Of a DNA stretch of 64,000 nucleotides, positions 2,169 through 29,310 are shown one piece after another. Under the pieces are notes generated by a model that was not told where the DNA came from, did not search any database, and worked only from the letters and a program-made list of their open reading frames with translations. Made by a program: the position numbers and the translations under genes. Source of the stretch: Candidatus Omnitrophota bacterium. Lineage in GTDB: Bacteria; Omnitrophota; Gorgyraeia; Tantalellales; Tantalellaceae. Every line of letters starts with the position of its first letter. The first letter of the stretch is position 1. The stretch covers positions 1,259-65,258 of the forward strand of contig JAQUQS010000001.1 in assembly GCA_028715965.1 (NCBI GenBank), given 5' to 3'.

Positions 2169-2742
2169 CAGCCATCTCTTCCACTATCTTGCATATTATA
2201 TGGATAACGGCGGAGTGCACTTCCTGTATCCGGCCGGTAACCCTGGACGGCACTACTATAGGCATATCACACATCCCGGCAAGCTCTCCACCCGTACCGC
2301 CCGTAAGAGCTATGGTCACCATTTTCCTGTTCTTTGCGGAACGGACTGCTTCGATAATATTAGGCGACTTACCACTTGTTGATATCGCCACAGCCACATC
2401 CCCTTCTTCCCCGAACGCCTCTATCTGCCTGCTGAATATCCTTGAAAAGTCGTAATCATTGCCTGTAGCAGTTATGGCCGAACAATCCGATGCCAGGCAG
2501 ATACAGGGCAATGCCCTTCTTTCCTTTTCGAACCGCACCACAAGTTCCGCGGCCATATGCTGGCTGTCCGCTGCGCTGCCGCCATTGCCGAACACGACCA
2601 CTTTCCTGCCATGATCATACGCTTCTGCTATGGCTTCGGCCGCCCGCGCCACTATGGAGACATTCTTGTCGGAGGACAGGAATTTTTCCTTGGCGTCAAT
2701 ACTTTCCCTGAGGATATCCCTCACAAGGCTTTTAGCGTCCAT
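2152..2742 (-). CDS. gmhA: D-sedoheptulose 7-phosphate isomerase (SIS domain)
   Basis: VVVFGNGGSAADSQHMAAELV...AISTSGKSPNIIEAV is the canonical GmhA/SIS signature. Confidence 0.85.
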   Translation of the reverse strand: MDAKSLVRDILRESIDAKEKFLSSDKNVSIVARAAEAIAEAYDHGRKVVVFGNGGSAADSQHMAAELVVRFEKERRALPCICLASDCSAITATGNDYDFSRIFSRQIEAFGEEGDVAVAISTSGKSPNIIEAVRSAKNRKMVTIALTGGTGGELAGMCDMPIVVPSRVTGRIQEVHSAVIHIICKIVEEMAGDVHR

Positions 2743-9239: not shown

Positions 9240-10033
9240 ACTACCAATCCGGCATAACCCACAACATGCGACGTATCGCCATTAACACTGCCGCTGTCAT
9301 CGTACTCGATAAGTTCAGCAGCACGGGCCCCAAGTTCTTTCGCTGATACCAACATCACGGCCACCGGCACAACACCACACATGCTGATATTATGTTCCTC
9401 CACCACCTCAAGTAGGCCTTCCGCGTCCAGCTCAAGTATCCGTCCTATAGCTTCTTTGTCCTTTTTCGACGCGGACGCCCTGCTCTCATAATGCGTCATA
9501 TCGCTACTTGCCACGATAAGCGCTTTGCCCCCGGAGGCCTTTATGGCCGAAGCTATGGCCTCCCCGGCCATCCTCACCTCACGAATACCCACGGACATGA
9601 ACGTTATCGGCACTATCTTCGCCTCAGGCGATATACTTTTAATGAACGGTAAGTGCACCTCAACAGCATGTTCTTGAGCATGCGCTTTCCTGTCTATCTT
9701 TATCCCGGAACGGCCTTTTGTTAGAGCGCGTATGAGATCCTTGTCGACCTCTACCGTTCCCAGCGGGGTCTCCCAATCTTCGTCCGAACAGGCGACCGCC
9801 TCGCCTCGCCCCGTATGATTGGGACCCAGGACCACATACGTTCTTGCGGGCCTGATCGCGCCATATACCTTTCCGGCTATGCCCCCGGAATATACGTATC
9901 CGGCATGTGGGGCTACAATACCTATCGCATTACGCGCCTCTTTTTTCACGGAGATAAGAGCTTTTATTTCACGTGAAAGATCTTCAGTATCGGAAGGATA
10001 AAAACATCCCTCTACCACAGGTCTCCTGGCCAT
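9233..10033 (-). CDS. MEMO1-family protein (AmmeMemoRadiSam system protein B-like)
   Basis: CFYPSD...VAPHAGYVYSG...GPNHTG...MTHYES motifs of the MEMO1/extradiol-dioxygenase-class-III-like fold. Confidence 0.8.
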   Translation of the reverse strand: MARRPVVEGCFYPSDTEDLSREIKALISVKKEARNAIGIVAPHAGYVYSGGIAGKVYGAIRPARTYVVLGPNHTGRGEAVACSDEDWETPLGTVEVDKDLIRALTKGRSGIKIDRKAHAQEHAVEVHLPFIKSISPEAKIVPITFMSVGIREVRMAGEAIASAIKASGGKALIVASSDMTHYESRASASKKDKEAIGRILELDAEGLLEVVEEHNISMCGVVPVAVMLVSAKELGARAAELIEYDDSGSVNGDTSHVVGYAGLVVC

Positions 10034-15700: not shown

Positions 15701-15920
15701 CTTCTCTCAGCTCTTTTTCTATCGGGACCGTAACAAGCTTCTCCATGTCCAGGGGGGTCGCACCCGGATAATATGTGACCACGGAGACCATATCAAAATT
15801 AACATTAGGGAATACTTCTTTATTCATGCCCAGAAGCACGATAAGGCCCATTATTATTATGATCACGGACACCAGATTTACGAACAGGGATTGGTTCACG
15901 CTGAACCTGGGAAGACTCAT
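12768..15920 (-). CDS. RND superfamily efflux transporter permease (AcrB-like)
   Basis: 1050 aa with 12-TM architecture and NLISMFGLIIVLGMLVDDGIIVAENVYRY, which corresponds to the AcrB TM4 region. Confidence 0.9.
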   Translation of the reverse strand: MSLPRFSVNQSLFVNLVSVIIIIMGLIVLLGMNKEVFPNVNFDMVSVVTYYPGATPLDMEKLVTVPIEKELREVDGIKEMNSSSAAGISLIQIKIEPDEDDKDKVVQDIRNAVDRAKDLPRDITENPVVTEISTKQYAVIEVSLSGKMDEHKLRKYADALEDILEDIKGVAKVDKAGYRDREMRVLVYPDKLREYYVSLDEIEKALADRNISIPAGEIDTRTIEYSVRTTGEFNTAGEVEDVVIRANDSGNWLKIRDVARVEDSFKKEDVINKTLGTRSINLVVMKKESGDAIKVVDEVKKQCDKFLKMAAASDTGSLQISYVNDYSFYARRRLNVLKNNGWGSLIIVIGIMMLFLEKRVAIMAVLGIPIAFFATFMVMGMMGITINLISMFGLIIVLGMLVDDGIIVAENVYRYMEDGVPSRQAAVKGAEEVQGAVCAAVFTTIASFAPLLFMTGIIGKFIRNIPTVLIIALLASLGEALIILPCHLADFVKIKYDKDGKPMHLSKDMPWFKALINGYTKVVKGAIKRKYMVFGGMCMVFLVSVFLATNVLKFVLFPSAGINFFFIRAEAPIGTPVNRTNELIAPIEDIVSEISKEELDTFVTTVGNIQEDRHDPFSGQESNLVQITVYLTQEQDRKRTADEIIAELREKTRDIKGFDSLRFDKPQTGPPVGKAVEARVRGEDFGTLDKIAFEYMDYLKAIEGTTDVTWDHKPGKKEVRVMVDREKAALAGLSVGQIASTVRGVFRGNIATKIKPVKAENETDVTVMFDEDESADFDVFDNVLIRNQYGNLIPLKKVAAIEEVPGTTTVHHLDGKRVVTASCNVDNDKATSMKVNAMLMEKFKELADRYLGYSVKYGGEQEETMESLVALLRSFLFAFLIIYLILASFFKSLVQPAIVMLAIPFGLIGVVAAFLVHGVPFSFMAILGVVGLSGIVVNDSIVLVDFINKLRQSGLSRYDSIVKAGQMRIRPVILTTVTTAGGLSTVAYGIGGKDPFLVPMALSICWGIVFATVLTLIVIPCIYSIIDDIAIKLTHHSSMIQRERVNGNGA

Positions 15921-17404
15921 ATTAACTCCTTGTATTTATCCAGGATAACGTTCATGGACCTTTCCAGCTCTATTTCCGCCAGGCGTTCACGATAGATCGA
16001 ATCCGCGGCCCTGAGTTCGGCCCCTAAAAGGTCCTGCTGATAATCTATCATCTTCTTCGTGTCGGAACGACCGGACCTGAACCGTTTTTCCTCCTCCATA
16101 AGCTTGTCCGCCTGCAACACCACGGCCCTGGTCAGGAAATCCGTGCCCTCCCGGAACGTTATCATGGTATTAAAAGCGTTAACAACTTCGGTGATTATAC
16201 TTCTCTCCTTGAACTTGAGATCGGTTATCGCCTTCATCTTTTCCTGTTTCGCCTTTTCCGTAAGACTACGTGCCTGGCTGTTCTCCAAAGGCACCCTGAA
16301 TTCGACTCCGGCGACATAATATGTGTTATCAATGACAACTGTCTTACCAAAAGCCTTCTTGAACTTATCACTAACACCGTTCATGGCGAAGCTCATGCTC
16401 AGATCTATCTCCGGCCACGCCCGGTTCCTCTCAATAGCGAGTTCTATGCCTTTCGCGTCCACGTCTTTTCTTTTTTCCTCGTAATCCCGTCTCTTCTCGA
16501 AAGCGGTCTTAAGGCACTCTTCCAATGTCATGCCCATAACACTTTCCCTGAGCTCATCCGAGGGGACTATCCTGGCGTCATCAGCGAAGTTCATCTTGAG
16601 CTTCAACCTCTCCTCGGCGTTCTTATAGCTATTTTCAGCGACCAGCACATCGGCCTGGAAAGCCGTAAGGTTGGCTTCAGAGGCAAGAAGATCGACCTTT
16701 TCCTTAAGCCCTATCTCATGGTTCTTCTTGTCCGACTCGTATAACTGCCTGGCCTTGGCGAGCATGCCGTAATATATGTCCAGAGAACGCTTGGCGAAGA
16801 CAAGTTCAAGATAAGCGTCCTTTATATCCGCTATCGCGGCTTCTACACGGTCCTGCTCCTCCAGAGCGGCCATATCCACGGCTATCCTGGCAAGCGTTAT
16901 GTTGTTCCTGTCTATCATGCCGAACATATTCCTTCCGACAGGCTGCCTGATATCCACTTCCAGCTGGGAGGAATGCGATGGGTTCACATCAACAAAGGCC
17001 GTATTGTTCCACAGCCTGTCGTCCCCAAGCTCTATGCTCACATCCGTACCGGTAGGAAGTCTTTTTCCAAGTCCCAGGTTGTAGGAGTTCCCCTGGGTGT
17101 TATCCGAGGCGAACACCGACAGTTGCTGGCGTTTGTCCTCGGAATATGCCGCGCCTCCATAGAGGAACGTATCAAAGACAGCTTCCGAGTACATAACGCC
17201 GGTCTCGGCGATATAAAGGTCCAGCTTAGCCATACGTATCTCGAAACTGTTCCTTATACCGGACAGGACACAATCTTCCATGGAAAGCGTGACCACTTCC
17301 CTGTCCCCAGCGGGTGAGAACTCTTCCGCAGATACGCGAACAGGTACAAACGCTAGCGCTAGCGCCGTGACAACCATTCTTCCGATGCTGATCCTATAAC
17401 TCAT
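15917..17404 (-). CDS. outer membrane efflux protein (TolC/OMF family)
   Basis: Signal peptide, 495 aa, and a coiled-coil-rich two-repeat OMF pattern. It overlaps the RND start by 4 nt. Confidence 0.85.
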   Translation of the reverse strand: MSYRISIGRMVVTALALAFVPVRVSAEEFSPAGDREVVTLSMEDCVLSGIRNSFEIRMAKLDLYIAETGVMYSEAVFDTFLYGGAAYSEDKRQQLSVFASDNTQGNSYNLGLGKRLPTGTDVSIELGDDRLWNNTAFVDVNPSHSSQLEVDIRQPVGRNMFGMIDRNNITLARIAVDMAALEEQDRVEAAIADIKDAYLELVFAKRSLDIYYGMLAKARQLYESDKKNHEIGLKEKVDLLASEANLTAFQADVLVAENSYKNAEERLKLKMNFADDARIVPSDELRESVMGMTLEECLKTAFEKRRDYEEKRKDVDAKGIELAIERNRAWPEIDLSMSFAMNGVSDKFKKAFGKTVVIDNTYYVAGVEFRVPLENSQARSLTEKAKQEKMKAITDLKFKERSIITEVVNAFNTMITFREGTDFLTRAVVLQADKLMEEEKRFRSGRSDTKKMIDYQQDLLGAELRAADSIYRERLAEIELERSMNVILDKYKELI

Positions 17405-17846
17405 TCTTTATCCTGATCCCTTCATATATCTTCTTTAATATCCTCAGGTACTCTTTTTTTTCGGCGTTGTCCAATATCTCGAACATGCCGGATACGGCGT
17501 TCACACGCGTATTTCCGATAACATCAAGCGCTTTCCTCCCCTTTTCAAGACAGACCACATGCACTATCCTTCTGTCCTCGACGGAACGTTCCCGCTTGAC
17601 GAACCCTTGTTCTATCATCTTATCCACTATGCCGGTCACCGATCCCATGCTCAATTCGAGCACAGTGGCAAGCTCTCCCATATTACACGAGCCTTTTTCC
17701 GCGATCGCCTCAAGTATTATCACCTGGGGGAGCGTGATATTAAGCTTGGAAAGCGCGTGTATCTGGGTCTTAAAAGCCCTCCTTAATATCAAAGGCATAA
17801 GCGTAGTGACCTCTTTAGCGAAACTCAAAGAACCTTCGCTATTCAT
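17394..17846 (-). CDS. MarR-family transcriptional regulator
   Basis: Winged helix-turn-helix LNITLPQVIILEAIAEKGSCNMGELATVLELSMGSVTGIVDKMIEQGFVKRERSVEDRR. It overlaps the OMF gene start. Confidence 0.85.
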   Translation of the reverse strand: MNSEGSLSFAKEVTTLMPLILRRAFKTQIHALSKLNITLPQVIILEAIAEKGSCNMGELATVLELSMGSVTGIVDKMIEQGFVKRERSVEDRRIVHVVCLEKGRKALDVIGNTRVNAVSGMFEILDNAEKKEYLRILKKIYEGIRIKNEL

Positions 17847-17962: not shown

Positions 17963-19987
17963 TCAGAATTCCAATGAAACGCCGAATTCGAAATTACTTT
18001 CGGGAGCCGGATATACCGCGATACTGCCAAGTAAGCCCTTGGTCCCGCTGGAATTATATCTTTCGTTCAGGATGTTCTTCGCGGAGAAGAATATCCTGAT
18101 GGCTTTCCATTCATACGAAACGTTCGCGTCAAGCGTTAGATACTGTTTAAGCTCAGGAGCGCTATTACTCTGATCGTTAGCGGCATACCTGGCCCCGACA
18201 AAATTCATAATAAGATCGGCCGCCAGACCTTTCCAGCGTTTTAGCCCTATCCTGGCGCTCAGCTTATTCTCCGGGACAAGCGGTATGTTCTTATTGTCGA
18301 ACTTACCTCCGTCAAAATACGACCTTTGCAGGGTATACCCCAAGCCTATCTCCACCCTGTCACTGATAACGGTCCCGGCCGAAAGTTCCAGCCCATGGTG
18401 AACGGTGTGGTGATAATTCCGGTTCAAATAATCATCCGGGTCATAATAGATCTCATTCTTATTATCTATGATGTAGTAATCGGCGCTCAACTCGAACGGT
18501 TCGAACGTCCTGTCGGAAATACCGATCTCGTAATTGTTGCCCACCTGCTGTTTTAGGCTGGTGTTCAATGAGGCGGGGACCTTGACGGCATCGAACTCAT
18601 ATGCGGACTGGAAGAACTCGTCCGTGGCCGGGTTCCTGTATGACCTCGCGTAATTGAAATACACACGGGAAGAGTCATTGTACTTATACCCCAGTCCACC
18701 GTCAAAAGCCAGGCCGATAGGGCTTTTCATGTCCTTGGAAGGAACGGGCTGGCCCTGGTCGAATATGTATTTTGTCCATTCGGTCCTTACTCCCCCACTT
18801 ACTATGAAACGCTCCTCCAGTATCAGGTTATCCGACAGGTACACACCGAACATATCCTTGGTAATATCCGCCTTGGACTCCGTGAGGGTCACGTCCCCGC
18901 TGCCAAAACTGTCCAACGCATGGAAATAATCCACGCCTACGATCAACTTGTTCTTCCCCAGCCCCCCCATGAGGATCGTCTCCCACTCGACCTTCGGGGA
19001 CCAGTCAAAAGAATCTATAAAGTGCCTGTTGGTACTCACGCTTCTTGAACGCGCTTTTCGCGACCTATAGGTCAGCGGGCTCGATATGGACACCTCCCCC
19101 CCATCGATCTCATAACGTTTACGAGGATCGAACGTGATAAAATAATCTTCCGTGTCAGCCTTACTATCCGGAAAGTGCGATATCCTCCGGCCATTATTCT
19201 CGATATTCGTGTTATAGAGCGCGCCGGGCTGGCCATACCAGTCACGGTGGTAACTGAACGCGAAATAGGCCTCAATGTCATCGCCAGGGGTAAAGGTAAA
19301 ATTTCCCATAGCGTCGTCAGCCTCGTATCGGTTATTGCTCCTGTACCCTTCCGTGAAGTCGTCCGAGTAACTGACAAAATAGTCCAGTATATCTTCCCCT
19401 CCATAAGCGGAAACATATTCTTTCCTGGCCTGGTAGCTTCCTATTTGCTGGGAAAACGACACGTGATGCCCCTTTCCGCCCTTTTTTGTGATAATGTTAA
19501 TAACGCCCCCCGTGGCGTTGTCGCCATAGAGCACATTCCTGGCTCCCCTTACGATCTCGATCCTATCGATGGAATTCACGTCTATCTGGGACATATCCGC
19601 CCCCGACAGGTCTATCTGGTTTATCCTGCGTCCGTCTATCAGCACAAGATAGTTCACCATGCCGGAATCCCCATATCCACGTATATCTATGGCGCTATTC
19701 TTGGGGTTATCCGCGAACCCTCCTATTATTATGCCCGGCTCACACTTGATGGCCTCCTGAACACTTCTCGCGCCCGAATCCTCTATCTCTTGCGCGGTTA
19801 TCACGCTTACGTTACTGTTCAGGTTGTACGGATATTCCGCGTACCTGGCCGGGGTCACAACAATGGCATCCAGCTCCATTACCTCGCTATCTTGTCCCCC
19901 AGAGCCCTCGGCACTAACTGAGGCGCAAAAAGCCCCAAAAAAAACAACGACCAGCAGCGCTACCACATGGACATTCCATTCCTTCAT
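17963..19987 (-). CDS. btuB: TonB-dependent outer-membrane receptor, probable vitamin B12 transporter (BtuB-like)
   Basis: Signal peptide MKEWNVHVVALLVVVFFGAFCASVSA, TonB box DAIVVTPA, a plug domain and a C-terminal aromatic residue (…LEF). The start is taken at ATG 19987 because a cobalamin riboswitch and terminator occupy 20016-20283. The ORF track's 20113 start would run through the terminator. Confidence 0.8.
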   Translation of the reverse strand: MKEWNVHVVALLVVVFFGAFCASVSAEGSGGQDSEVMELDAIVVTPARYAEYPYNLNSNVSVITAQEIEDSGARSVQEAIKCEPGIIIGGFADNPKNSAIDIRGYGDSGMVNYLVLIDGRRINQIDLSGADMSQIDVNSIDRIEIVRGARNVLYGDNATGGVINIITKKGGKGHHVSFSQQIGSYQARKEYVSAYGGEDILDYFVSYSDDFTEGYRSNNRYEADDAMGNFTFTPGDDIEAYFAFSYHRDWYGQPGALYNTNIENNGRRISHFPDSKADTEDYFITFDPRKRYEIDGGEVSISSPLTYRSRKARSRSVSTNRHFIDSFDWSPKVEWETILMGGLGKNKLIVGVDYFHALDSFGSGDVTLTESKADITKDMFGVYLSDNLILEERFIVSGGVRTEWTKYIFDQGQPVPSKDMKSPIGLAFDGGLGYKYNDSSRVYFNYARSYRNPATDEFFQSAYEFDAVKVPASLNTSLKQQVGNNYEIGISDRTFEPFELSADYYIIDNKNEIYYDPDDYLNRNYHHTVHHGLELSAGTVISDRVEIGLGYTLQRSYFDGGKFDNKNIPLVPENKLSARIGLKRWKGLAADLIMNFVGARYAANDQSNSAPELKQYLTLDANVSYEWKAIRIFFSAKNILNERYNSSGTKGLLGSIAVYPAPESNFEFGVSLEF

Positions 19988-20015
19988 TCTCTTTCCTTTC
20001 TGTGCAAAAAAAAAC

Positions 20016-20057
20016 CTCTTCTTCCGCATAGATAGGAAGAAGAGGTCAACCGTTTTT
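20016..20057 (-). terminator. intrinsic terminator (stem CCTCTTCTTCC / loop / GGAAGAAGAGG followed by a U9 tract); expression platform of the cobalamin riboswitch
   Basis: On the minus strand: cctcttcttcctatctatgcggaagaagagg + ttttttttt. It is followed by the RBS aaaggaaagaga and ATG 19987. Confidence 0.8.
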
Positions 20058-20099
20058 ACCTCATATGTATATGTTCTCTCAAGGCCTGATCCGGACCCG

Positions 20100-20275
20100 G
20101 ACAACTTTAACATACAGGCAGGTCTTCTGGCTTCCGGATCATCCTTCCTGCCCCGCCTTCCCGCTTATGATAAGCAGTGGCTTTCAGTGGGCTGAAGTCC
20201 CCGGTCACAGCGGCGGCACCGCGCCCGATCTTCACGGGCTTCCCTTTCAAGTCGCGATATCACCTGTATGGAATA
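20100..20275 (-). ncRNA. cobalamin (B12) riboswitch aptamer
   Basis: The minus-strand RNA reads …AGGTGATATCGCGACTTGAAAGGGAAGCCCGTGAAGATCGGGCGCGGTGCCGCCGCTGTGACCGGGG…GCCACTGcttatcataagcGGGAAGGC…. This matches the conserved cobalamin core (GGTG, AAGGGAA, GTGAAnATC, GCGGTnCCGCCnCTGTGA) and the B12 box GCCACTG…GGGAAGGC. Confidence 0.8.
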
Positions 20276-20283
20276 TATGTCGA

Positions 20284-20793
20284 TCAATACTTCGTGGATA
20301 AAAGTATATCTTTAAACCTCGTCTTTACGGCAACCCTCGCCGCCAGCTCATAGGCGCCGAACAGGGCCATAGTATAGGCGAGGCCCGAAACGACCGTATT
20401 ACGTAAAAATGGGACGGCTTTCAGATAACAATCCGCCAACCCCTGAACGGTATGGGGATACCACGCTACCCATACCCCGAAATTGGTCACGATGAAAAAG
20501 AAAAGGGACGCGGCCAGCGAGACCCCCGTTACGGACCATATGTTCTTCCTGCCCTTGAGCCACATACCCATGTACCCCGTTATCGCGAAAGCGCCCCATG
20601 TATAGAGAAAAACATCGTGTAACCCCAGGACAAGATCGCTAAGTATCATTATGGCAAGGGGCACCCAGGGAACATATTTCTTACTCAGATATGCGCCGGA
20701 AAAAATAGCTATGGCCGCGACCGGTGAAAAATTAGCCGCGTGCGGCAACAGTCTGAAAAGGAACCCCGCCAATATCAGTAAATACGCTATCAT
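20284..20793 (-). CDS. small polytopic membrane protein (DUF6580-like putative transporter component)
   Basis: 169 aa with about 5 transmembrane helices. The motifs RLLPHAANFSPVAAIAIFSGAY and FFFIVTNFGVWV recall the DUF6580 'putative transport protein' family. Confidence 0.45.
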   Translation of the reverse strand: MIAYLLILAGFLFRLLPHAANFSPVAAIAIFSGAYLSKKYVPWVPLAIMILSDLVLGLHDVFLYTWGAFAITGYMGMWLKGRKNIWSVTGVSLAASLFFFIVTNFGVWVAWYPHTVQGLADCYLKAVPFLRNTVVSGLAYTMALFGAYELAARVAVKTRFKDILLSTKY

Positions 20794-20831
20794 ATGTTAT
20801 TCCTTTCTTGCCGTCGTGAATACCGGTCCGA

Positions 20832-22394
20832 TCACACCCTGACCCTTGAGAGCATGTACGAAAAAAAACCTCCCGCCATCGCGGTCAGGAGATATTTTAT
20901 ATTAACGGCCATCTGACTGTCAAGCCCCGGATATATCTTATATATCGATGCCGCGATAAGCCCCAGAATGAAATAATATGTACCCGCGGGTATTTTTTTT
21001 ATGCATATATCCATTATCTTGGAGAAGACCAGGATCCCTACCGCCGCGCCCATGCCTACGAAAAACAGTATCCCCACGGCCATTTCCCTTACAGCGTTGA
21101 GAACCGCGGAATATTGTCCCATAAGCACTAGCATGAAAGATCCGCTTATCCCGGGGACGATCATCGCGCCCCCGGCAAAAAATCCGGATATGACCAGCAT
21201 AGACCTGTAAATAAGGCCCGATCCGGCCTCCACGCTACCAGAAACGTTCCCTTCCATACGCACCATAGCCAGGCCTATCATAAGTATCATCCCCATAACA
21301 AAGGCCAGTATCCTGGTCGTACTCACGCCCATATCATCATGTGCCCGGAACATCGCGGGAACACCACCGGCTATCAGCCCCACAAAAAGGAACATCGTTA
21401 TCCTGTAATGTTCACTGAGCAGGTATTGCATCACACCGGCAAACGCGCCTATAGCCACCACAGCCCCCGACCCCAGTATCCCCAGAAAAAGTATATATGT
21501 CCCTTTTTTGGCTTTCGGGCTGAAAAAACAGGATATTGCCTCTATCAGCCTGGCATACACCCCAAGTACTACCGCTATGGTCCCACCGGAAACACCGGGG
21601 ATGATGTTAGCTACACCTATTACCATACCCTTGACGAAAAGAGAGACCGCGCCGGTAAGTGATGTGATCGGGACCATATCGTAGTCCCTTTTTGGGGTGT
21701 TGGCGGGGCATCTCCCTCCGGATGACAACATATACCTGGAAATAAGCCTGAAGAACCTCAAGGTGTCCACAATAGGGTTTATCTGTGATTTTTCCTCTCC
21801 ATATATCGTCCTTATGGGCACGGACTTTATCCTGGCACCGCGACGGGCGGCAATTATGAGCATTTCTGTCTCAATGTCGAAATTCTTTGAACATAGCCGG
21901 GTATCCCTGAAACATGCCGCCCGGAGCAGCCTGTATCCGCACTGCGTGTCGGATATCTTCTGTCCACACATATTAGATATGAACCACGACATAAAACGAT
22001 TGGTCCAATACCTTACGGCTGGCATATCTCGCGTATCAGCCATCCTATCCCCAGAAACTATGTCCGCGTCGACGGCGGCAGCCATCATCGCGCCGATATT
22101 GGCCGTGTCATGCTGCCCATCCCCATCCATGAGCAATATCCACTCGAACCTTGTTTTGTTGATCACATGTTCAAGGCCTTCCCTCACGGAAAACCCCTTA
22201 CCCTTGTTCTTTTTGTGCTGGATGATCTCCGCGCCGGCTTCGACCGCTATTCGCGCGGTATCATCGGTCGAGCCGTCATCAATAACCAGGACCTTCAACC
22301 CTTTGCCCGCTATTTCACGAACGATACGGTCTATGGTCCTCGCCTCGTTAAAGGAAGGTATTACGACTATCGTGTTTTCTTTTACACATCCCAT
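20832..22394 (-). CDS. fusion protein: N-terminal GT2 polyprenyl-phosphate glycosyltransferase (DPM1/GtrB-like) plus C-terminal DUF368 (PopT-type undecaprenyl-phosphate translocase family) membrane domain
   Basis: Residues 1-230: IVVIPSFNEARTI…VLVIDDGSTDDT…LLMDGDGQHD (GT2). Residues ~245-520: GVANIIPGVSGGTIAVVLGVY … IVPGISGSFMLVLMGQY, a duplicated DUF368-type motif in a polytopic domain. It is one continuous 520-aa ORF. Confidence 0.75.
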   Translation of the reverse strand: MGCVKENTIVVIPSFNEARTIDRIVREIAGKGLKVLVIDDGSTDDTARIAVEAGAEIIQHKKNKGKGFSVREGLEHVINKTRFEWILLMDGDGQHDTANIGAMMAAAVDADIVSGDRMADTRDMPAVRYWTNRFMSWFISNMCGQKISDTQCGYRLLRAACFRDTRLCSKNFDIETEMLIIAARRGARIKSVPIRTIYGEEKSQINPIVDTLRFFRLISRYMLSSGGRCPANTPKRDYDMVPITSLTGAVSLFVKGMVIGVANIIPGVSGGTIAVVLGVYARLIEAISCFFSPKAKKGTYILFLGILGSGAVVAIGAFAGVMQYLLSEHYRITMFLFVGLIAGGVPAMFRAHDDMGVSTTRILAFVMGMILMIGLAMVRMEGNVSGSVEAGSGLIYRSMLVISGFFAGGAMIVPGISGSFMLVLMGQYSAVLNAVREMAVGILFFVGMGAAVGILVFSKIMDICIKKIPAGTYYFILGLIAASIYKIYPGLDSQMAVNIKYLLTAMAGGFFSYMLSRVRV

Positions 22395-23239
22395 ATTTTC
22401 CTAAAAACATACCATTGGTCAGGATAGCTTCTTATGTAAGATTCGAACTTGCTTATATATCTGGTCATCAGGGCCTTTACATCATCTTCATCCCGGCCCG
22501 TACTTTCCGGATAGATCGGTTCTTCAAAGAACATGCAGAACTTGTCTCCTTCCATGCGCGTAACCACCGTGAAAACTATGGGCGCGCCCGTTCTCAGCGC
22601 GAAGGCCGCCGCGCCTTTTGGCATTATCGCCTTACGGCCGAAGAACTCCACGGGTATCCCGGTATTCGTGTAATCCTTGTCCCCCACGATCGCCAGTATT
22701 TCATTCCTCTTCAGGACTTTGTAACATTCCTTTATGGATATTCCAAGAGGTATGGACCTTAGCCCGTTTATAGCGCGTTGCTTAACGAAAAAGTCATTCA
22801 CTTTTCTATCCGGCTGCTCGAGTATTATAGCGCTTATGGGATAATTCAGCCCTCCGATTATAGCGCCCCCAAGTTCCCAGTTCCCTAAATGCAGCGATAA
22901 AAGTATCAGCCCCTTCCCGCTTTCCAAGGCTTTATCCAGGTTCTCCCTGCCGCGCAACGTTATGTGGCGTGCTATATGATCCTCGGTAAACCTTGTGAAC
23001 CTGAAAAAATCGACCAGATATCTGGCGAAGTTCCTGAAAACGGCATGCACATGCCTGTCAAGGACCTTATCGTCCACATCATCGCCTAATACCACTCTCA
23101 GGTTAGACCTTAACGCGGCTTTATCTTCCCGGCCGAACGCACAAAAAAGCCGGGCCACCCTATCCGCGATAAAATAAGACACTTTTATCGGTATGGCGTT
23201 AGCGAGAAAATAACCCGTCCTGTAAAGTAAATACAACAT
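22382..23239 (-). CDS. lysophospholipid/lipid A-type acyltransferase (LpxL/HtrB family, LPLAT)
   Basis: 285 aa with an N-terminal membrane anchor and the HLGNWELGG acyltransferase motif (HX4D-like region). Confidence 0.75.
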   Translation of the reverse strand: MLYLLYRTGYFLANAIPIKVSYFIADRVARLFCAFGREDKAALRSNLRVVLGDDVDDKVLDRHVHAVFRNFARYLVDFFRFTRFTEDHIARHITLRGRENLDKALESGKGLILLSLHLGNWELGGAIIGGLNYPISAIILEQPDRKVNDFFVKQRAINGLRSIPLGISIKECYKVLKRNEILAIVGDKDYTNTGIPVEFFGRKAIMPKGAAAFALRTGAPIVFTVVTRMEGDKFCMFFEEPIYPESTGRDEDDVKALMTRYISKFESYIRSYPDQWYVFRKIWDV

Positions 23240-23240
23240 A

Positions 23241-24359
23241 CTATAAGATATCTTTGACCAGTTTCGCTATGTTCAACGCGCTGTCGGGCCTGGCTATTTT
23301 ACCCGCCGCGATCTTCATCCCGTCAATAACACCTTTAGCATCAAAAAGTTCGTTCATGCTCTGATGTATCGCGTCTATGTTCTTGATCTCTACCGCTACA
23401 CCCTTCCTGACAAGATAATCCGTATTCAGTCTCTCATGTCCAGGTATAGGATCGACTATTATGAGCGGCAGGCGCTTGACCATCGATTCGGCTATGGTCA
23501 TTCCTCCTGGTTTAGATATTATAACATCAGAGACCTCCATAAGCTCCTCTATGTTCTTGACATATGTCATGGTCATGAGCCTGCCGCCGGTCTTTTTCTT
23601 TTCAAGCTTTTTCAGCTTCGAGTACAACTTCTTGTTCGTACCGGTGACCACTACCAGGCGGTAATTATGTTCTTCGTCCGAGAGAAGCGAACGTACTACG
23701 ACCTCCATCGCGCCTATCCCCTGGCTTCCTCCCATTATAAGGATCACGGGCGCGTCGCCCTCAAGCTTTAACCTCTCTTTTACATCTTCCCGGTCCAATC
23801 CCACGCTGAACTTCGGGTCGACCGGTATCCCGTAAGCTTTCACTTTCTTGCTGGGGACCCCTTTCTTTATGAGCGTTTCCCCGGTCTCCTCGGATGGAAC
23901 TATGTAATAATCCACTTCATCATAAAGCCAGTAAGAATGTGGAGCGTGATCCGTAAGTACACCTATAAGCGGGGTATCCTTACCTATGGACCTCTTATAA
24001 TCGGCCACCATGCCACAGGGAAAAGCCTGAGTACATAACACCACGTCGGGATCATGGGCGTCTATAAGCTTCCTGACCTTGGACATGTTGAACTTGTGGA
24101 TCGCCTCCCTGGCCTTGCTGGTCTTTTTCATGAATTCCGGGTTGTCGTATATGTTGCCCCATATTTCCGGTCTTTTCTTTATGACCTGCATATACGCCTT
24201 ATTTATCACCTTTTCCAGGATCGGATTGGTATAGCTAAAGGCATTGATCTTGTCGACCTCTATATTACCCAGGACAGAGACCAGCCCCTGCTCTATGGCG
24301 CTAGCGGCGTGGAAATGCCCTGAATGCCTTGATATGTAGAAAATAAGCGCTTTTTTCAT
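23241..24359 (-). CDS. GT28-family glycosyltransferase (monogalactosyl/glucosyl-diacylglycerol synthase-like)
   Basis: MKKALIFYISRHSGHFHAASAIEQGL N-terminus and a C-terminal GT-B nucleotide-sugar-binding half (GGSQG…PGGMTIAE), typical of MGDG synthase/UgtP-like enzymes. The ORF track starts 12 codons upstream at 24395. Confidence 0.75.
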   Translation of the reverse strand: MKKALIFYISRHSGHFHAASAIEQGLVSVLGNIEVDKINAFSYTNPILEKVINKAYMQVIKKRPEIWGNIYDNPEFMKKTSKAREAIHKFNMSKVRKLIDAHDPDVVLCTQAFPCGMVADYKRSIGKDTPLIGVLTDHAPHSYWLYDEVDYYIVPSEETGETLIKKGVPSKKVKAYGIPVDPKFSVGLDREDVKERLKLEGDAPVILIMGGSQGIGAMEVVVRSLLSDEEHNYRLVVVTGTNKKLYSKLKKLEKKKTGGRLMTMTYVKNIEELMEVSDVIISKPGGMTIAESMVKRLPLIIVDPIPGHERLNTDYLVRKGVAVEIKNIDAIHQSMNELFDAKGVIDGMKIAAGKIARPDSALNIAKLVKDIL

Positions 24360-24363
24360 GATC

Positions 24364-24636
24364 TTATCCGCGCAGGATATCGTTCCCGCCGGCACCGTCC
24401 TCTCTCTCCATAAGCGCTATAATATCGCCCGGGACCGCTTCCGCTCCCACTTCCTTCATTTTTTTTATCAAAACTCCTCCGAAGGGTGCCGGCACATCAA
24501 AGGTCGCCTTATCCGTGGATATTTCCAGAAGGTCCTGTCCTTCCACCACTTTTTCGTTCTCCTGCACATGCCATGACACTATAACGGAGATCTCTTCCTG
24601 TTCCGCCACATCCGGAAGCTTTAACTCCAAGATCAT
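24364..24636 (-). CDS. stand-alone lipoyl (biotin/lipoyl attachment) domain protein
   Basis: 90 aa with LPDVAEQEEISVIVSWHV…EGQDLLEISTDKATFDVPAPFGGVL. The lipoyl-lysine motif is ETDK-like (STDKAT). Confidence 0.7.
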   Translation of the reverse strand: MILELKLPDVAEQEEISVIVSWHVQENEKVVEGQDLLEISTDKATFDVPAPFGGVLIKKMKEVGAEAVPGDIIALMEREDGAGGNDILRG

Positions 24637-24660
24637 TTTATCCGCCTTTCTTGCGTGTTC

Positions 24661-25293
24661 CTATTCGTTCGAAAAAACGTGAGCGAACTCCCGGGTGAAT
24701 ATCTCCTTTGCGCGGGACATATCGCATTTCCCGCCAAGCGCCTCTTTCGCGGAGACCACTCTTATCCGCTCCTCACCGCACGGGTTCATGTGGGAGAACG
24801 GCTCCACATCATTGTTCAGGTTTATCGAGACACCGTGATAAGTCACCCATCTCCGCACGGCCACTCCTATAAAAGCTATCTTCCTGTCCGCCACCCATAC
24901 CCCACGTTCCCCGGAACGTCTTTCAGCCGCAACACCCATAACGTTCAATCCACGCGTTACGGCCTTTTCTATGTTATCGATATAAGTGGAGACCTTCCAC
25001 CCTTTAAGCTTAAGATCTATGACCGGATATATCAGAAGCTGTCCCGGCCCGTGATATGTGACCTTGCCGCCCCTTGCGGTACTGATCACCGGTATCCCGT
25101 TCTTCTCGAAATACCGGAGGTCCAGACCGCTTTCGGACCCGGACGTCCTCCCCAAGGTGACCACATCAAAGTGTTCCAGGACAAGAAGTGTATCGGCTAT
25201 CGACCGCTCGCATCTTTTGGCCACATATTCCCTTTGAAGCTCAAGGGCTTCTAAATACTCCATCATCCCGAGATCAATGACCTCCGGGACCAT
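24661..25293 (-). CDS. lipB: lipoyl(octanoyl) transferase
   Basis: TYHGPGQLLIYPVIDL… and the catalytic region of LipB. The start is placed at MVPEVIDLG (25293), because the longer ORF to 25356 would overlap leuD. Confidence 0.85.
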   Translation of the reverse strand: MVPEVIDLGMMEYLEALELQREYVAKRCERSIADTLLVLEHFDVVTLGRTSGSESGLDLRYFEKNGIPVISTARGGKVTYHGPGQLLIYPVIDLKLKGWKVSTYIDNIEKAVTRGLNVMGVAAERRSGERGVWVADRKIAFIGVAVRRWVTYHGVSINLNNDVEPFSHMNPCGEERIRVVSAKEALGGKCDMSRAKEIFTREFAHVFSNE

Positions 25294-25312
25294 CGAGTGA
25301 AAGATACCGCTT

Positions 25313-25816
25313 TTATGCAAGACGGTCGAATCCGCCATTTGACCTGAAATATTCAATGACCCCGCCGTTCTTAAGGAAACCCCTCATTATAGCAGGCAAG
25401 GGCTTGAAATCTATTCTCAGCCCTTTCGTTATATTCTGGATGACATTACCGTCAAGGTCCAGCACCAGTTCGTCCATGTCATCAATGAACTTCGTATCGC
25501 TCTCAATAAGACAAAGACCTACATTGAACGCGTTGCGATAAAATATCCTGGCGAAACTCTTGGCGATGACAGCCTGGATACCACTGGCCTTTATCGCGGC
25601 AGGCGCCTGTTCCCGGGATGACCCGCATCCGAAATTATTTCCGGCCACCAGAAGATCCCCCGTGTTGACCTTTTTTATGAAATTCTCTTCAAGGTCCTCA
25701 AAAATATGCTGGGCGAGCTCTTTATCGTCCTGTATCTTGAACTTGTATCTACCGGATATTATATAATCCGTATTTACATCATCCTGTATCTTAAGCCTGT
25801 GCGCGATATTAGCCAC
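25313..25816 (-). CDS. leuD: 3-isopropylmalate/(homo)aconitase-type dehydratase small subunit
   Basis: GDLLVAGNNFGCGSSREQAPAAIKASGIQAVIAKSFARIFYRNAFNVGL. Confidence 0.85.
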   Translation of the reverse strand: MANIAHRLKIQDDVNTDYIISGRYKFKIQDDKELAQHIFEDLEENFIKKVNTGDLLVAGNNFGCGSSREQAPAAIKASGIQAVIAKSFARIFYRNAFNVGLCLIESDTKFIDDMDELVLDLDGNVIQNITKGLRIDFKPLPAIMRGFLKNGGVIEYFRSNGGFDRLA

Positions 25817-25855
25817 TTCTTCTCCTTTTCAGGTTGATCGTCCAGACGATAAGGT

Positions 25856-27118
25856 TCACAACCGCCTTTTATGCTCCCTGGGATCGGCAATACTGCCCTC
25901 CAGTGCCGTCGCCGCGGCCGCGGCCGGACTTCCCAGATAGATCTTTGAATTCGGATTCCCCATGCGTCCCTTGAAATTCCTGTTGGCGGTAGAAAAAGCG
26001 TTTTCTCCATCCGCCAATACTCCCTGGTGCGTACCAACACACGGACCACATCCGGGATTGTTCACCGCGGCACCGGCCTCGACAAAAATATCTATATATC
26101 CGCGTTTGATACATTCCAGGAATATTTTCTTAGACGCCGGAGTGATAACAAGTTTCATCCCCGGAGCTATTTGCCTCCCCTTCAATATGCTGGCGACCAC
26201 CTCCAGGTCCTCTATCCTGCCGTTGGTGCAAGTCCCTATGACGACCTGGTCTATCGGCGTTCCCAGCACCTCATCTATATCACACACGTTGTCCACACTG
26301 TGTGGCATAGCGACCTGCGGGGTAAGCTCCGAAAGATCATATTCCCTTATTTCGGCATATCTGGCATCCTCGTCTGCCTCAACCGGCCTGGCTTCTTTGA
26401 CAGAATGTTTTTTCACCCAATCCAGGGTCTTCCGGTCGGCTTTCATGAGGCCACATTTCGCGCCGATCTCCACGGCCATGTTCGCCACTGTGAACCGGCC
26501 TTCCACGCTCATTCCGTTTATCACGTCACCGTAGAACTCTACCGACTTGTAAGTCGCCCCATCAGCGCCAAAGTCCTTTATCACCTTGAGTATGGCATCT
26601 TTCGGGTATACCCCCTTCGGGAGCTCCCCGTTCATCACTACCTTTATGGTCTCCGGGACCTTGAACCAGCTCTTACCGCTGGAAAGGGCGATCGCGAGAT
26701 CGCTCGACCCGACCCCTGTGGACAACACATTGATAGCGCCATAAGTACATGTGTGCGAATCCGCGCCTATCACCAGGTCCCCACAAGTTATATACCCGGC
26801 TTCCGGTATGATCTGGTGACTGATACCACACCCTATGTCCACCAGATGAACGCCATGTTCCGCGGCGAACCTTCTCATTTTCGAATGAACAGTGGACACC
26901 CCGATGTTCGGGCTGGGAGAAGAATGGTCTATCACCATCAGGAATTTATCTTTATCAAAAACATGTTCCGCCCCTATTTTCGAGAAGCTATCCATGATAA
27001 TAGAGCTTGTGCCATCCTGGCCGAAACAGAGATCTATGTTCGCGATCACTATATCCCCCGCTTTAGCCCTTTTCCCCGAATGTTCCGACAATATCTTCTC
27101 AGCTATCGTCTGCCTCAT
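25856..27118 (-). CDS. leuC: 3-isopropylmalate/(homo)aconitase-type dehydratase large subunit
   Basis: 420-aa short-form aconitase-family protein with an Fe-S Cys triad region …NPGCGPCVGTHQGVL…. Confidence 0.9.
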   Translation of the reverse strand: MRQTIAEKILSEHSGKRAKAGDIVIANIDLCFGQDGTSSIIMDSFSKIGAEHVFDKDKFLMVIDHSSPSPNIGVSTVHSKMRRFAAEHGVHLVDIGCGISHQIIPEAGYITCGDLVIGADSHTCTYGAINVLSTGVGSSDLAIALSSGKSWFKVPETIKVVMNGELPKGVYPKDAILKVIKDFGADGATYKSVEFYGDVINGMSVEGRFTVANMAVEIGAKCGLMKADRKTLDWVKKHSVKEARPVEADEDARYAEIREYDLSELTPQVAMPHSVDNVCDIDEVLGTPIDQVVIGTCTNGRIEDLEVVASILKGRQIAPGMKLVITPASKKIFLECIKRGYIDIFVEAGAAVNNPGCGPCVGTHQGVLADGENAFSTANRNFKGRMGNPNSKIYLGSPAAAAATALEGSIADPREHKRRL

Positions 27119-27164
27119 CTCTTCCTCTTTCTTTTTAGGCTCTATGGGTCTTTAAAAGACACCG

Positions 27165-28331
27165 TTAAAAAGACCTGATAAAATCGATCACGCGTTCCGC
27201 GCCCCTACATATCGTTGCCTCGTCCGTAGCAAAACTTATACGTATGCTCTTATCGTCCCCGAACGGTCCTCCGGGTATCACGGCAACCTTTCTGTCCTCG
27301 AGAACCTTCTCCGCGAACACCATAGAGTCAAGCCCTGTACCCGAAATATCGCAGAACATATAAAAAGCCCCCAACGGCACGATCGGTCTTATCCGCGGTT
27401 CAGCATTTAGGAACCCCAGAAGTATATCCCTTCTTTTCTGGAACATCCTGCTATTATCCTTTATTGTCTGTCCCAGATCACTTTTCAACGCGAATTCCGC
27501 CGCTACCTGGCTTATTGAACAAGGATTCGATGTCGAATGGTCCTGCAATATGCCCACACGTTTCACGATATCCTCGTCGGCAGCGATATACCCGATCCGC
27601 CATCCTGTCATTGAATAGCTCTTCGACATGCCGTTCACAACCACCGTGGCCCTTTTCATGTCCTCAGACACCTGGGCTATTGAGAAATGTTCCCTGCCAT
27701 CGAATATTATCTTTTCGTATATCTCATCGCTTACAACGGTTAACCCGGCCTCAAGACACACCCCGGCTATAGCCCTGATCTCATTTTCTTCATACACGAC
27801 ACCTGCCGGATTTGACGGGCTGTTGAGGATTATCACTTTCGTCCTCGGCCCGACAGATCTCCTTATGTCTTCAGGGGACACCTTGAACGTTGTTTTATCT
27901 TCAGGGGATATTATTTTTGGAACGGCACCCGCAAGCACTACCATCTCCGGATAACTTAGCCAATACGGAGAGATTATCAGCACTTCATCTCCTGGGTTGC
28001 ATATCACCTGCAGAACGTTATATATCGAGTGTTTGGCTCCGCAGGATACCACTATGTTCTTGGCCGCATACTCTAAACTATTATCTTTCTTTAACTTGTG
28101 CGCTATGGCTTCTTTGAGCGTATTCGTCCCGCTGGAAGGAGTATATTTCGTAAATCCATCATTTATCGCTTTTATCGCGGCTTCTTTTATAACATTCGGC
28201 GTATCGAAATCCGGTTCCCCGGCGGCAAGAATAACAACATCTTCCCCCTTAGCCTTCATCGCTTTTGCTTTTGACGTAATACCCAATGTAGCCGAAGGTT
28301 TTACCCGGGATATTTTCTCAGAAAAAAGCAT
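27165..28331 (-). CDS. aspartate/aromatic aminotransferase (class I PLP fold)
   Basis: …NSPSNPAGVVY… and the PLP-lysine region VVVNGMSKSYSMTGWRIGY, 388 aa. Confidence 0.9.
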   Translation of the reverse strand: MLFSEKISRVKPSATLGITSKAKAMKAKGEDVVILAAGEPDFDTPNVIKEAAIKAINDGFTKYTPSSGTNTLKEAIAHKLKKDNSLEYAAKNIVVSCGAKHSIYNVLQVICNPGDEVLIISPYWLSYPEMVVLAGAVPKIISPEDKTTFKVSPEDIRRSVGPRTKVIILNSPSNPAGVVYEENEIRAIAGVCLEAGLTVVSDEIYEKIIFDGREHFSIAQVSEDMKRATVVVNGMSKSYSMTGWRIGYIAADEDIVKRVGILQDHSTSNPCSISQVAAEFALKSDLGQTIKDNSRMFQKRRDILLGFLNAEPRIRPIVPLGAFYMFCDISGTGLDSMVFAEKVLEDRKVAVIPGGPFGDDKSIRISFATDEATICRGAERVIDFIRSF

Positions 28332-28431
28332 GATCTCTCTCCTTAACGTGAATTTTTGTCAGATGACATAAAATATCATATTAAACATAATATTACAAGA
28401 GGGAAAAATTTGTGGAATAATCAAAATACAT

Positions 28432-29310
28432 TTAAGAGCAACAATGGCATGACGTTGTATGTAAAATGTTATAAACCATAAGCTTATGTCGCAGTTCATC
28501 TCTTATCTGGTATGGATGGTAGAGTACCATTCCGGGGATACCTTTTTCTTCAGTCACCTTCCCGGTTACGCATATTTTTTTACCGAGATACTCGCTCAAA
28601 CGGCCTTTTTTCTCTGCTTCAAAAAAGCGTAAATTACCCTTGAATATAGTAACGTTGAACACATCAACACCGTTACCTTTTATCTCCATTACGACCTCAC
28701 TCCGGGTCTCCTTGATACCTTTGACCTCGCCGGTCACCGAACACACTTCTCCTACATGACCATGCGCCTCGCGAACATCTATATTCGCGCATACGCCCCA
28801 TATGCCCCGTCTTTCCTCGCGAGCTACTTCCTGAGCCCGGAGCAACACATCCAGATACTCGATATTGGGTGGAAAAACCGTTACCCTGGCAAGACCCCTA
28901 AGTACGATCTCTTCGTTCACGAAAACGTCACCAACAAAAACATACAAAAGAACCCGACCATATTTATCCGTTACCTTCTCATCGGGAACAACGAATACCG
29001 TCTTCCCCCCGACAAGCTCCTCGTTGAGTTCCGTAGCCGCTTCGGCAAAAGGTTCCGGGGCATATTCCCAGCCATTGCGTCCTTTTCTCCGGACTTCCGG
29101 CGTGTCTATACCAAGATATCTAGCGGTACGACCGTCGGACAATCGCGCGGTGTCCCCATCTATCACATGGTCTATCTGTAACTCGAAGCCTTTATCCTTC
29201 AGGTCTTCGGCCGGAAGCGGTACCCGGGAATCCACTACAAGGATCACCAGAAAAGATACTGTGAAGCGGAAAATCGCGTTCTTTATAAAGGTGATGTGTC
29301 CCATCATCAT
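28432..29310 (-). CDS. membrane-anchored thermonuclease (SNase/micrococcal nuclease family) with a C-terminal OB-like domain
   Basis: N-terminal TM segment, then VIDGDTARLSDGRTARYLGIDTPE…GRVLLYVFVGDVFVNEEIVLRGLARV…RRGIWG (SNc catalytic motifs), plus a ~120-aa C-terminal beta-rich domain. Start taken at the Met cluster 29304-29310, abutting the nth stop. Confidence 0.75.
   Translation of the reverse strand: MMMGHITFIKNAIFRFTVSFLVILVVDSRVPLPAEDLKDKGFELQIDHVIDGDTARLSDGRTARYLGIDTPEVRRKGRNGWEYAPEPFAEAATELNEELVGGKTVFVVPDEKVTDKYGRVLLYVFVGDVFVNEEIVLRGLARVTVFPPNIEYLDVLLRAQEVAREERRGIWGVCANIDVREAHGHVGEVCSVTGEVKGIKETRSEVVMEIKGNGVDVFNVTIFKGNLRFFEAEKKGRLSEYLGKKICVTGKVTEEKGIPGMVLYHPYQIRDELRHKLMVYNILHTTSCHCCS

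Follow-up and report, generated by a model that had tools for sequence, protein, structure and literature searches.

A conserved GT28-acyltransferase-GT2 gene trio of Omnitrophota, carrying a GT2::DUF368 fusion, as a candidate envelope glycolipid and carrier-recycling module

Three consecutive minus-strand genes in a 64-kb stretch of Candidatus Omnitrophota bacterium DNA (assembly GCA_028715965.1, contig JAQUQS010000001.1; hereafter the window) encode a family 28 glycosyltransferase (GT28), a membrane-associated acyltransferase of the PatA/LpxL family (PF03279) and a family 2 glycosyltransferase (GT2) fused to a DUF368 domain. The closest analogy to this trio among described systems is the early pathway of phosphatidylinositol mannoside (PIM) and lipomannan synthesis in mycobacteria (PimA/PimB', PatA and Ppm1), in which the same three enzyme classes are found, namely a GT-B lipid glycosyltransferase, a PF03279 acyltransferase acting on a glycolipid sugar, and a soluble-type GT2 donor synthase feeding periplasmic GT-C enzymes. 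In mycobacteria, patA and pimA lie in one operon, and Ppm1 of M. tuberculosis is a GT2 fused to a membrane domain. The Omnitrophota locus nevertheless departs from the PIM route in several respects. Its lipid glycosyltransferase is a GT28 of the UgtP type, predicted to act on diacylglycerol, rather than a GT4 acting on phosphatidylinositol; the membrane partner of its GT2 is a carrier translocase and not an Lnt-like domain; phosphatidylinositol synthase is absent, neither pgsA nor pimA being present in the window region; the acyltransferase misses the PatA equivalog cut-off (150.7 versus 209 bits); and the host is a diderm of the Planctomycetes-Verrucomicrobia-Chlamydiae (PVC)/Omnitrophota group.

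A second point of comparison is the anchor synthesis and glycosylation system of lipoteichoic acid (LTA) in Firmicutes, which comprises UgtP/YpfP, the GT2 enzymes CsbB/YkcC, GtcA/YngA, the GT-C enzymes YfhO/YkcB and the DedA protein UptA. UgtP is the closest characterised relative of the GT28 studied here and, in that system too, a GT2 that synthesises an undecaprenyl phosphate (Und-P)-linked sugar works with a polyprenyl-phosphate translocase. YkcC (GT2), YkcB (GT-C), YngA and UptA (DedA) were placed in a single B. subtilis regulon by Roney and Rudner. The Firmicute system has no acyltransferase and is organised as a dispersed regulon, whereas the genes described here are fused or adjacent; conversely, the window encodes no LtaS, GtrA-type flippase or GT-C enzyme, and the host has an outer membrane.

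Translocases of the PopT/DUF368 and DedA families are themselves known to be fused or adjacent to the enzyme of an adjoining step of the carrier cycle, published examples including DUF368-PAP2, PAP2-DUF368, DUF368-BacA and DedA-PAP2 as well as DUF368 genes in archaeal Agl (N-glycosylation) clusters. The present fusion follows this pattern and differs from the known DUF368 fusions in that the partner is a cytoplasmic GT2 expected to consume the recycled carrier, not a phosphatase producing it. Decoration of lipid A by ArnC/ArnT also bears likeness to the locus, as the GT2 domain finds its best match in the Protein Data Bank (PDB), by sequence and by fold, in ArnC. Decoration of this type depends on DedA proteins in some bacteria. 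The ArnC/ArnT-type pathway releases Und-P directly (PMC12826051). No ArnT, ArnA, ArnB or ArnD gene is present here, however, and the GT2 orthologues are devoid of the C-terminal transmembrane helices of ArnC. Finally, VexE, the acyltransferase of the Vi-antigen anchor, is a PF03279/LpxL-PatA-family enzyme acylating a glycolipid other than lipid A (PMC9597891); it acts on the N-acetylhexosamine terminus of a capsular polymer in Proteobacteria. Each enzyme class and the general logic of the locus are known, and it is their combination that is new: diderm PVC-type hosts, a rare GT2::PopT fusion, and the substitution of one translocase family by another (DUF368, PF06695 or DedA) at a single position.

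We tentatively propose, at a level of confidence somewhat short of even, that the trio constitutes the core, at the cytoplasmic face, of a conserved four-step pathway for an envelope glycolipid. Judging from homology, the UgtP-like GT28 would move at least one hexose from a nucleotide sugar to diacylglycerol, and the PatA/LpxL-family enzyme, as gene linkage and homology suggest, would add an extra acyl chain to the resulting glycolipid in the manner of PatA. In the third step, to which homology, structure and fusion partners all point, the GT2 would load a sugar onto polyprenyl (undecaprenyl) phosphate, yielding a donor used outside the cytoplasmic membrane by GT-C enzymes encoded elsewhere, for the extension or decoration either of the glycolipid or of another envelope polymer. 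Transfer of the sugar would free the carrier phosphate on the outer face of the membrane, whereupon the fused DUF368/PopT domain, to go by its family function and by the fusion itself, would flip the carrier back and hand it directly to the GT2; in relatives, a DUF368, PF06695 or DedA protein with a gene of its own at that position would take over this fourth step. The sequence of charging by the GT2, use by a GT-C enzyme, carrier release and return through DUF368 is likely in view of homology and structure as well as of the fusion partners and the gene context, while the connection of the GT28 and the acyltransferase to it appears less certain. Pathways using Und-P-linked monosaccharides release Und-P, not undecaprenyl pyrophosphate (Und-PP) (review PMC12826051), which would explain why the GT2 is paired with a translocase rather than with a phosphatase. 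Most likely, the third gene makes a polyprenyl-phosphate-sugar donor and recycles its carrier, and does not act on the lipid made by the first two. An earlier note on this DNA had the three genes jointly synthesising and acylating one glycolipid; the family assignments, the synteny and a comparison with MurG uphold this proposal in part, but the third gene is better read as a carrier-sugar synthase and carrier translocase than as an enzyme of the same lipid, and a link to lipopolysaccharide (LPS), less likely, would draw on a WaaA::GT2 fusion, on a GT9 heptosyltransferase near the Verrucomicrobiia trio and on the acyltransferase being about equally close to LpxL and PatA.

The evidence for a functional unit comes in the first place from gene order. 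The acyltransferase was aligned with its relatives and the resulting profile used to scan GTDB at one genome per species; analysis covered the best 80 loci, all of them from Omnitrophota or from otherwise-labelled metagenome-assembled genomes (MAGs) with the same locus organisation (acyltransferase identity 39-61%), and neighbours were found by searching the six-frame open reading frames (ORFs) of these loci with the window proteins. GT28 was encoded directly upstream of the acyltransferase in 75 of the 76 loci with room for it, and GT2 directly downstream in 73 of 74, usually with an overlap of 4-11 nt, the exceptions being L074, where an aminotransferase takes the place of GT28, and L076, where GT2 has been lost. 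Conservation of the trio arrangement is far beyond chance. Flanking genes were kept less often (47-75%), including those for protein-L-isoaspartate O-methyltransferase (PCMT; 52/69), a lipoyl-domain protein (38/66) and LipB (28/60). Could the three genes nonetheless be neighbours by inheritance only, as independent housekeeping envelope enzymes (a membrane glycolipid synthase, a lysophospholipid acyltransferase and an Und-P-sugar synthase) packed into compact genomes with no pathway in common? Unrelated genes around the trio keep their order as well (LeuCD-like, LipB, lipoyl protein, PCMT, CobO and BtuB), and PCMT, a protein-repair enzyme, follows GT2 in 75% of the Omnitrophota loci (e.g. L005:7433-8080), and in one protein cluster (P0412, 456 aa) the two even form a fusion. 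PCMT is an unlikely member of the functional module since it is missing from the window and from the version of the trio found in Verrucomicrobiia. The trio itself, by comparison with the 47-75% of its flanking genes, is retained in 99% of loci; it recurs with overlapping genes in Verrucomicrobiia in the absence of any Omnitrophota flanking gene; and the acyltransferase-GT2 and GT2-translocase pairs recur independently in other lineages, all of which makes shared inheritance an improbable explanation for the arrangement.

The Verrucomicrobiia version came to light in a metagenome scan led by a Verrucomicrobial acyltransferase, which returned 43 high-GC loci (57-71% G+C). About 30 of the 43 carry GT28, acyltransferase and GT2 in the same order, with overlaps of 4-8 nt and 37-45% identity to the window proteins, and a search with the window proteins found none of the Omnitrophota flanking genes in these loci. 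For one GT2 of this group, the protein cluster also includes an NCBI entry of a Verrucomicrobiia MAG. The gene-order comparison called for in the earlier note has thus found the trio syntenic in 80 Omnitrophota species and recurring in Verrucomicrobiia. Of all the evidence for cooperation among the three genes, this reappearance in another phylum and in other surroundings is the strongest. Retention of the trio across an uncultured phylum and Verrucomicrobiia predicts a major, as yet undescribed envelope lipid in these diderms. In Verrucomicrobiia, the trio is followed by a DedA gene, then by an ABC-2 transporter pair and a GT9 heptosyltransferase, the latter lying 5-7 kb downstream in six loci (L120, L125, L127, L128, L136 and L140). 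At L127:445-2742, two GT4 genes and a gene for a DUF2079 membrane protein, which we take to be a member of the GT-C clan, stand upstream of the trio; together with the ABC-2 pair, these neighbours fit a larger envelope glycoconjugate locus, though one that is not widely conserved. Two very high-GC metagenome loci (L098 and L101) carry acyltransferase relatives without the trio, in a setting where simple ORF calls were too noisy to interpret.

The third gene of the window (20832..22394, minus strand) encodes a protein of 520 aa made up of a GT2 catalytic domain (aa 1 to ~226; 21717..22394), an interdomain linker (aa ~227-244; 21663..21716) and a DUF368/PopT (VCA0040-like) domain (aa ~245-520; 20832..21662), the two domains being a predicted polyprenyl-phosphate glycosyltransferase and a predicted polyprenyl-phosphate translocase, respectively. 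Pfam places Glycos_transf_2 at aa 10-159 and the VCA0040-like/DUF368 family (PF04018) at aa 259-491 (E 8.8e-45; 153.6 bits for a gathering score of 26; profile positions 1-232 of 246). The latter domain contains two PG(V/I)SG(G/S) repeat motifs and scores 157.9 bits against the NCBIfam PopT model, below the equivalog cut-off of 400. PF04018 is now named 'undecaprenyl phosphate translocase-like' in Pfam and PopT in NCBIfam; DUF368 is thus the PopT/VCA0040 family of Und-P translocases and no longer a domain of unknown function. Two papers, one of them by Roney and Rudner, demonstrated that DUF368 proteins are required for returning Und-P to the membrane's cytoplasmic face, and this transport role rests on experiments with proteins from S. 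aureus and V. cholerae and on proteins expressed in B. subtilis (review PMC12826051 among the sources). As for the GT2 domain, its NCBIfam matches were AglJ (122 bits, cut-off 325), PpgS (86 bits, cut-off 370), a Dol-P-hexose transferase model (71 bits, below cut-off) and ArnC (33 bits, cut-off 529); ArnC and DPMS were its top PDB sequence matches, and a Foldseek search with the AlphaFold2 (AF2) model of the domain put ArnC, DPMS and GtrB on top. The motifs DDGS and MDGDGQH (a DxD motif and D-x-D-x-Q-H signature) are invariant in the fused orthologues. The GT2 domain therewith resembles polyprenyl-phosphate glycosyltransferases in both sequence and predicted GT-A fold, its putative kin being ArnC, DPMS, GtrB, AglJ and PpgS.

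In the AF2 model of the entire fusion (mean predicted local distance difference test score [pLDDT] 89; predicted template modelling score [pTM] 0.64), the two domains are joined by a poorly defined linker (pLDDT below 50 at residues 227-237) whose length differs among fused orthologues. Unfused GT2 orthologues are 214-243 aa long and end after an amphipathic helix, with none of the C-terminal transmembrane anchor seen in GtrB, ArnC and archaeal DPMS, and it is the place of this anchor that the DUF368 domain occupies in the model of the window protein; hence, the fusion would give the catalytic domain a membrane anchor as well. An assembly artefact is ruled out as the source of the fusion by the occurrence of the identical protein on four contigs from separate samples, by fused orthologues (48-52% identity) in two other Omnitrophota, and by a separate GT2::DUF368 clade in Verrucomicrobiota, in which the gene ahead of each fusion encodes an acyltransferase orthologue (31% identical to that of the window). 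The window fusion also matches an NCBI protein of an Omnitrophota MAG with 100% identity. The architecture is rare: a fused-protein profile search of 1.84 billion representative proteins found full-length GT2::DUF368 proteins in only two clusters (at 50% identity), the window type and the Verrucomicrobial type, and the architecture goes unmentioned in the main texts of the DUF368 transport papers and of review PMC12826051. Close GT2 relatives occur in other architectures, with PMT_2 (a GT-C enzyme whose donors are polyprenyl-phosphate sugars), with Polysacc_synt (a flippase of the multidrug/oligosaccharidyl-lipid/polysaccharide [MOP] type), with PCMT, as tandem GT2 domains and with WaaA; of these partners, PMT_2 and Polysacc_synt correspond to other steps of the polyprenyl-phosphate-sugar cycle. 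The GT2::PopT fusion provides independent genomic support for the role proposed for PopT, and offers a ready single polypeptide in which to study the coupling of carrier recycling to reuse.

The direction of transport deserves consideration, as the DUF368 domain of the fusion might instead export the polyprenyl-phosphate-sugar, the protein then being a coupled synthase-flippase that does not import free polyprenyl phosphate. The fusion brings the product of the GT2 as near to the transporter as its substrate, the module encodes no GtrA- or Wzx-type flippase, and another cluster has this GT2 family joined to a MOP flippase domain. What DUF368 experiments revealed, however, was a loss of Und-P internalisation and not of Und-P-sugar export, and the known fusions of DUF368, to the Und-PP phosphatases PAP2 and BacA, fit the recycling direction; we therefore consider export very unlikely and retain carrier return as the function of the domain.

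A known or putative translocase accompanies the GT2 in relatives of the window as well. PF06695 is encoded after GT2 or GT2-PCMT in 41 of the 80 Omnitrophota species loci, often just 2-10 nt past GT2 (e.g. L013:8494-9006 and L174:6364-6858), while DUF368 fills that slot in three loci of the species set and in the clade of the window, never together with PF06695: L003, L004, L005 and the window all have DUF368 in the slot and no PF06695, and PF06695 was not found anywhere in the 64-kb window. The DUF368-bearing loci can be arranged in a stepwise series leading from GT2-PCMT-DUF368 (L005, L019 and L025), through overlapping GT2 and DUF368 genes without PCMT (L031), to the fusion (window, L003 and L004), DUF368 being a separate gene in L005, L019, L025 and L031. 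Of the 24 Verrucomicrobiia loci with room, 14 have a genuine DedA/VTT protein in the slot; two more loci have, respectively, a YqaA-type sequence (judged by eye) and a displaced copy. DedA (UptA) is the other family with experimental support as an Und-P translocase (Roney and Rudner; PMC12826051). One slot beside the same GT2 is thus shared by three membrane-protein families, among them two known flippases of the carrier lipid. The module of relatives likewise includes a known or putative translocase, be it DUF368, PF06695 or DedA, as an integral part and fourth function. Since PF06695 shares the GT2-adjacent slot with DUF368 and DedA, a role for it in polyprenyl-phosphate handling is suggested. 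Okawa et al. put PF06695 in the DedA superfamily; our hhalign comparison of PF06695 with DedA, made with two shallow local alignments, gave no signal (probability 0.2%). The interchange of DUF368, PF06695 and DedA in one position lends PF06695, a widespread family annotated as 'small multidrug export protein', a hypothetical function that can be put to the test. A more encompassing proposal, wherein Omnitrophota and a Verrucomicrobiia lineage, both diderm, would use an undescribed acylated glycosyl-diacylglycerol to anchor a lipomannan- or LTA-like lipoglycan, GT2::PopT would channel flipped carrier into re-glycosylation and PF06695 would be a third kind of translocase, is speculative and, with all its parts taken jointly, unlikely.

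Turning to the first gene of the trio, GT28 (23241..24359, minus strand) encodes a UgtP/YpfP/MGDG-synthase-type protein of 372 aa. Its longest ORF (23241..24395, minus strand) opens at GTG 24395; ATG 24359 is the likely true start, and was chosen because it lies 4 nt past the stop codon of the upstream lipoyl-domain gene and because orthologues are 371-373 aa long. The MGDG_synth domain (PF06925) is matched over its full length (positions 1-169 of 169; E 1.9e-26) and is followed by Glyco_tran_28_C (PF04101; E 2.6e-16), which completes the two-domain architecture of UgtP and monogalactosyldiacylglycerol (MGDG) synthases; an N-terminal G-H motif lines up with that of MGD1. The NCBIfam model of diglucosyl-diacylglycerol synthase (PRK13609) matches end to end with 236.5 bits, below the equivalog cut-off of 500, as opposed to 68 bits for MurG, confined to the C-terminal half. 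In the PDB, the best matches were UgtP (9wde, a processive diacylglycerol beta-glucosyltransferase; 141 bits) and plant MGD1 (4wyi; 96 bits), and MurG was not significant (E 0.18-0.2). The resemblance to MGDG synthase and UgtP pointed out in the earlier note is borne out by these comparisons, and an identity as MurG, against which the same note had wanted the protein checked, is ruled out, UgtP and MGD1 scoring far above it. By its sequence, GT28 is best described as a relative, not an equivalog, of UgtP-type lipid glycosyltransferases.

The acyltransferase gene (22382..23239, minus strand; 285 aa) follows GT28 after a gap of 1 nt and overlaps the GT2::DUF368 gene by 13 nt. The three genes had been described as slightly overlapping, which holds for the second junction and not for the first, although all junctions are tight; their presence and positions were confirmed, as were, with Pfam, their family assignments. 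The protein matches Lip_A_acyltrans (PF03279) with an E-value of 3.7e-45. Of the NCBIfam models, PatA gave the best match (150.7 bits; cut-off 209), and PRK08419, an LpxL model of the Campylobacterota type, came next (138 bits; cut-off 248); TIGR02207 gave 62 bits (cut-off 298), and no LpxL or LpxM cut-off was reached. Against the PDB, the single sequence scored 90 bits with PatA and 40 bits with LpxM, and the family profile 96 and 78 bits, respectively. PatA is accordingly the closest solved structure, and the analogy with PatA-type acylation drawn in the earlier note was apt. His117, the catalytic histidine within an HLGNWE motif, is invariant and aligns with the histidine of the HSGNWD motif of PatA; Asp187, its acidic partner and likewise invariant, aligns with PatA Glu200. 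The enzyme is probably active.

The same family affiliation raises the prospect that the module serves lipid A/LPS assembly. The acyltransferase would then be of the LpxL type, the GT2 and its translocase would provide the Und-P-sugar with which lipid A or 3-deoxy-D-manno-oct-2-ulosonic acid (Kdo) is decorated in the periplasm, as in ArnC/ArnT, LgmA/B or RgtE, and GT28 would act as a glycosyltransferase of the core or in an accessory role, or else make an unrelated membrane glycolipid. PF03279 is the family of late lipid A acyltransferases, and both the PRK08419 score (138 bits) and the family-profile score with LpxM (78 bits) are in keeping with such a role, as is the closest structural similarity of the GT2 domain, which is to ArnC. 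An outer membrane is present, to judge from a TonB-dependent receptor and a TolC-type outer-membrane efflux protein (OEP). In two related loci (L010:5620-8657 and L011:109-3146), moreover, the Kdo transferase WaaA is fused to a GT2 43% identical to that of the window, with an overlapping DUF368 gene coming next, and the GT9 heptosyltransferase found 5-7 kb downstream of the Verrucomicrobiia trio in six loci points the same way. Yet no lpx, kds or waaA gene adjoins the trio in the window or in some 160 related loci, the WaaA matches being limited to L010 and L011, and PatA was the best match of the acyltransferase in every comparison. The most constant neighbour of the acyltransferase is a UgtP-type enzyme with a complete MGDG_synth domain, and we know of no role for UgtP-type enzymes in LPS. 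Our literature search yielded nothing usable on lipid A or LPS production in Omnitrophota. On balance, a role in LPS assembly is rather unlikely.

Several observations weigh against the glycolipid pathway that we favour. The choice between a PatA-like and an LpxL-like acceptor is one for which sequence alone is insufficient: the family profile favours PatA (96 bits) over LpxM (78 bits) by a small margin, the LpxL model (138 bits) nearly equals the PatA model (151 bits), and all scores of the window proteins against curated equivalog models fall below their cut-offs. The window encodes neither a GT-C enzyme nor a glycolipid flippase, and the fused clade of Verrucomicrobiota has the acyltransferase and GT2::DUF368 with no adjacent GT28. 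The WaaA::GT2 fusion of a relative and the GT9 near the Verrucomicrobiia trio point towards LPS. The geometry between the two domains of the fusion is uncertain in the AF2 model (pTM 0.64, with six fused sequences in the alignment). Lastly, gene order in Omnitrophota is conserved over long stretches of unrelated genes, which makes synteny within the phylum, by itself, weaker evidence; the trio nonetheless stands out from this background of conserved order.

The window as a whole has a G+C content of about 50%, and nearly all of its genes lie on the minus strand; its GC skew is negative throughout. Directly upstream of the trio are the genes for LipB and a free-standing lipoyl-domain protein of 90 aa (24364-27118, minus strand), the order being LeuC/LeuD-like aconitase-family genes, LipB, lipoyl-domain gene and trio; in relatives, the upstream array also includes dihydrolipoamide dehydrogenase and an aminotransferase. 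Downstream, 38 nt past the fusion gene, comes a gene for a DUF6580 membrane protein (20284..20793, minus strand; Pfam E 3.4e-46), followed by a cobalamin riboswitch (20100..20282, minus strand; Rfam RF00174, 108 bits, E 4.9e-27) directly upstream of a gene for a BtuB-type TonB-dependent receptor (17963..20113, minus strand). A promoter and terminator consensus scan of positions 19900-28500 gave counts no higher than shuffled sequence and was therefore not used to set operon limits; instead, the riboswitch is the downstream boundary of the transcription unit of the trio. The B12 block of relatives runs CobO, DUF6580, BtuB-type receptor and BtuC/BtuF-like genes, and in view of this order DUF6580 may be a B12-related membrane protein. 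DUF6580 was also considered as a fourth member of the module, which is unlikely given that it travels with CobO and BtuB in relatives and is absent from the Verrucomicrobiia version.

Farther away, the window includes a MarR-OEP-RND (resistance-nodulation-division) efflux operon (12768-17846) and a ribosomal-protein/rpoBC/EF-Tu block (~34-62 kb). Some 11 kb from the trio, genes for an LPG_synthase_TM (MprF flippase-like) protein (7349-8383), a patatin-like phospholipase (8421-9239) and a Memo-like protein (9233-10033) lie side by side, all on the minus strand, and could be lipid-related. A SIS_2-domain protein of 196 aa (2152-2742, minus strand) is possibly a GmhA-type sedoheptulose-7-phosphate isomerase and, if so, hints at a heptose-containing LPS core in this organism.

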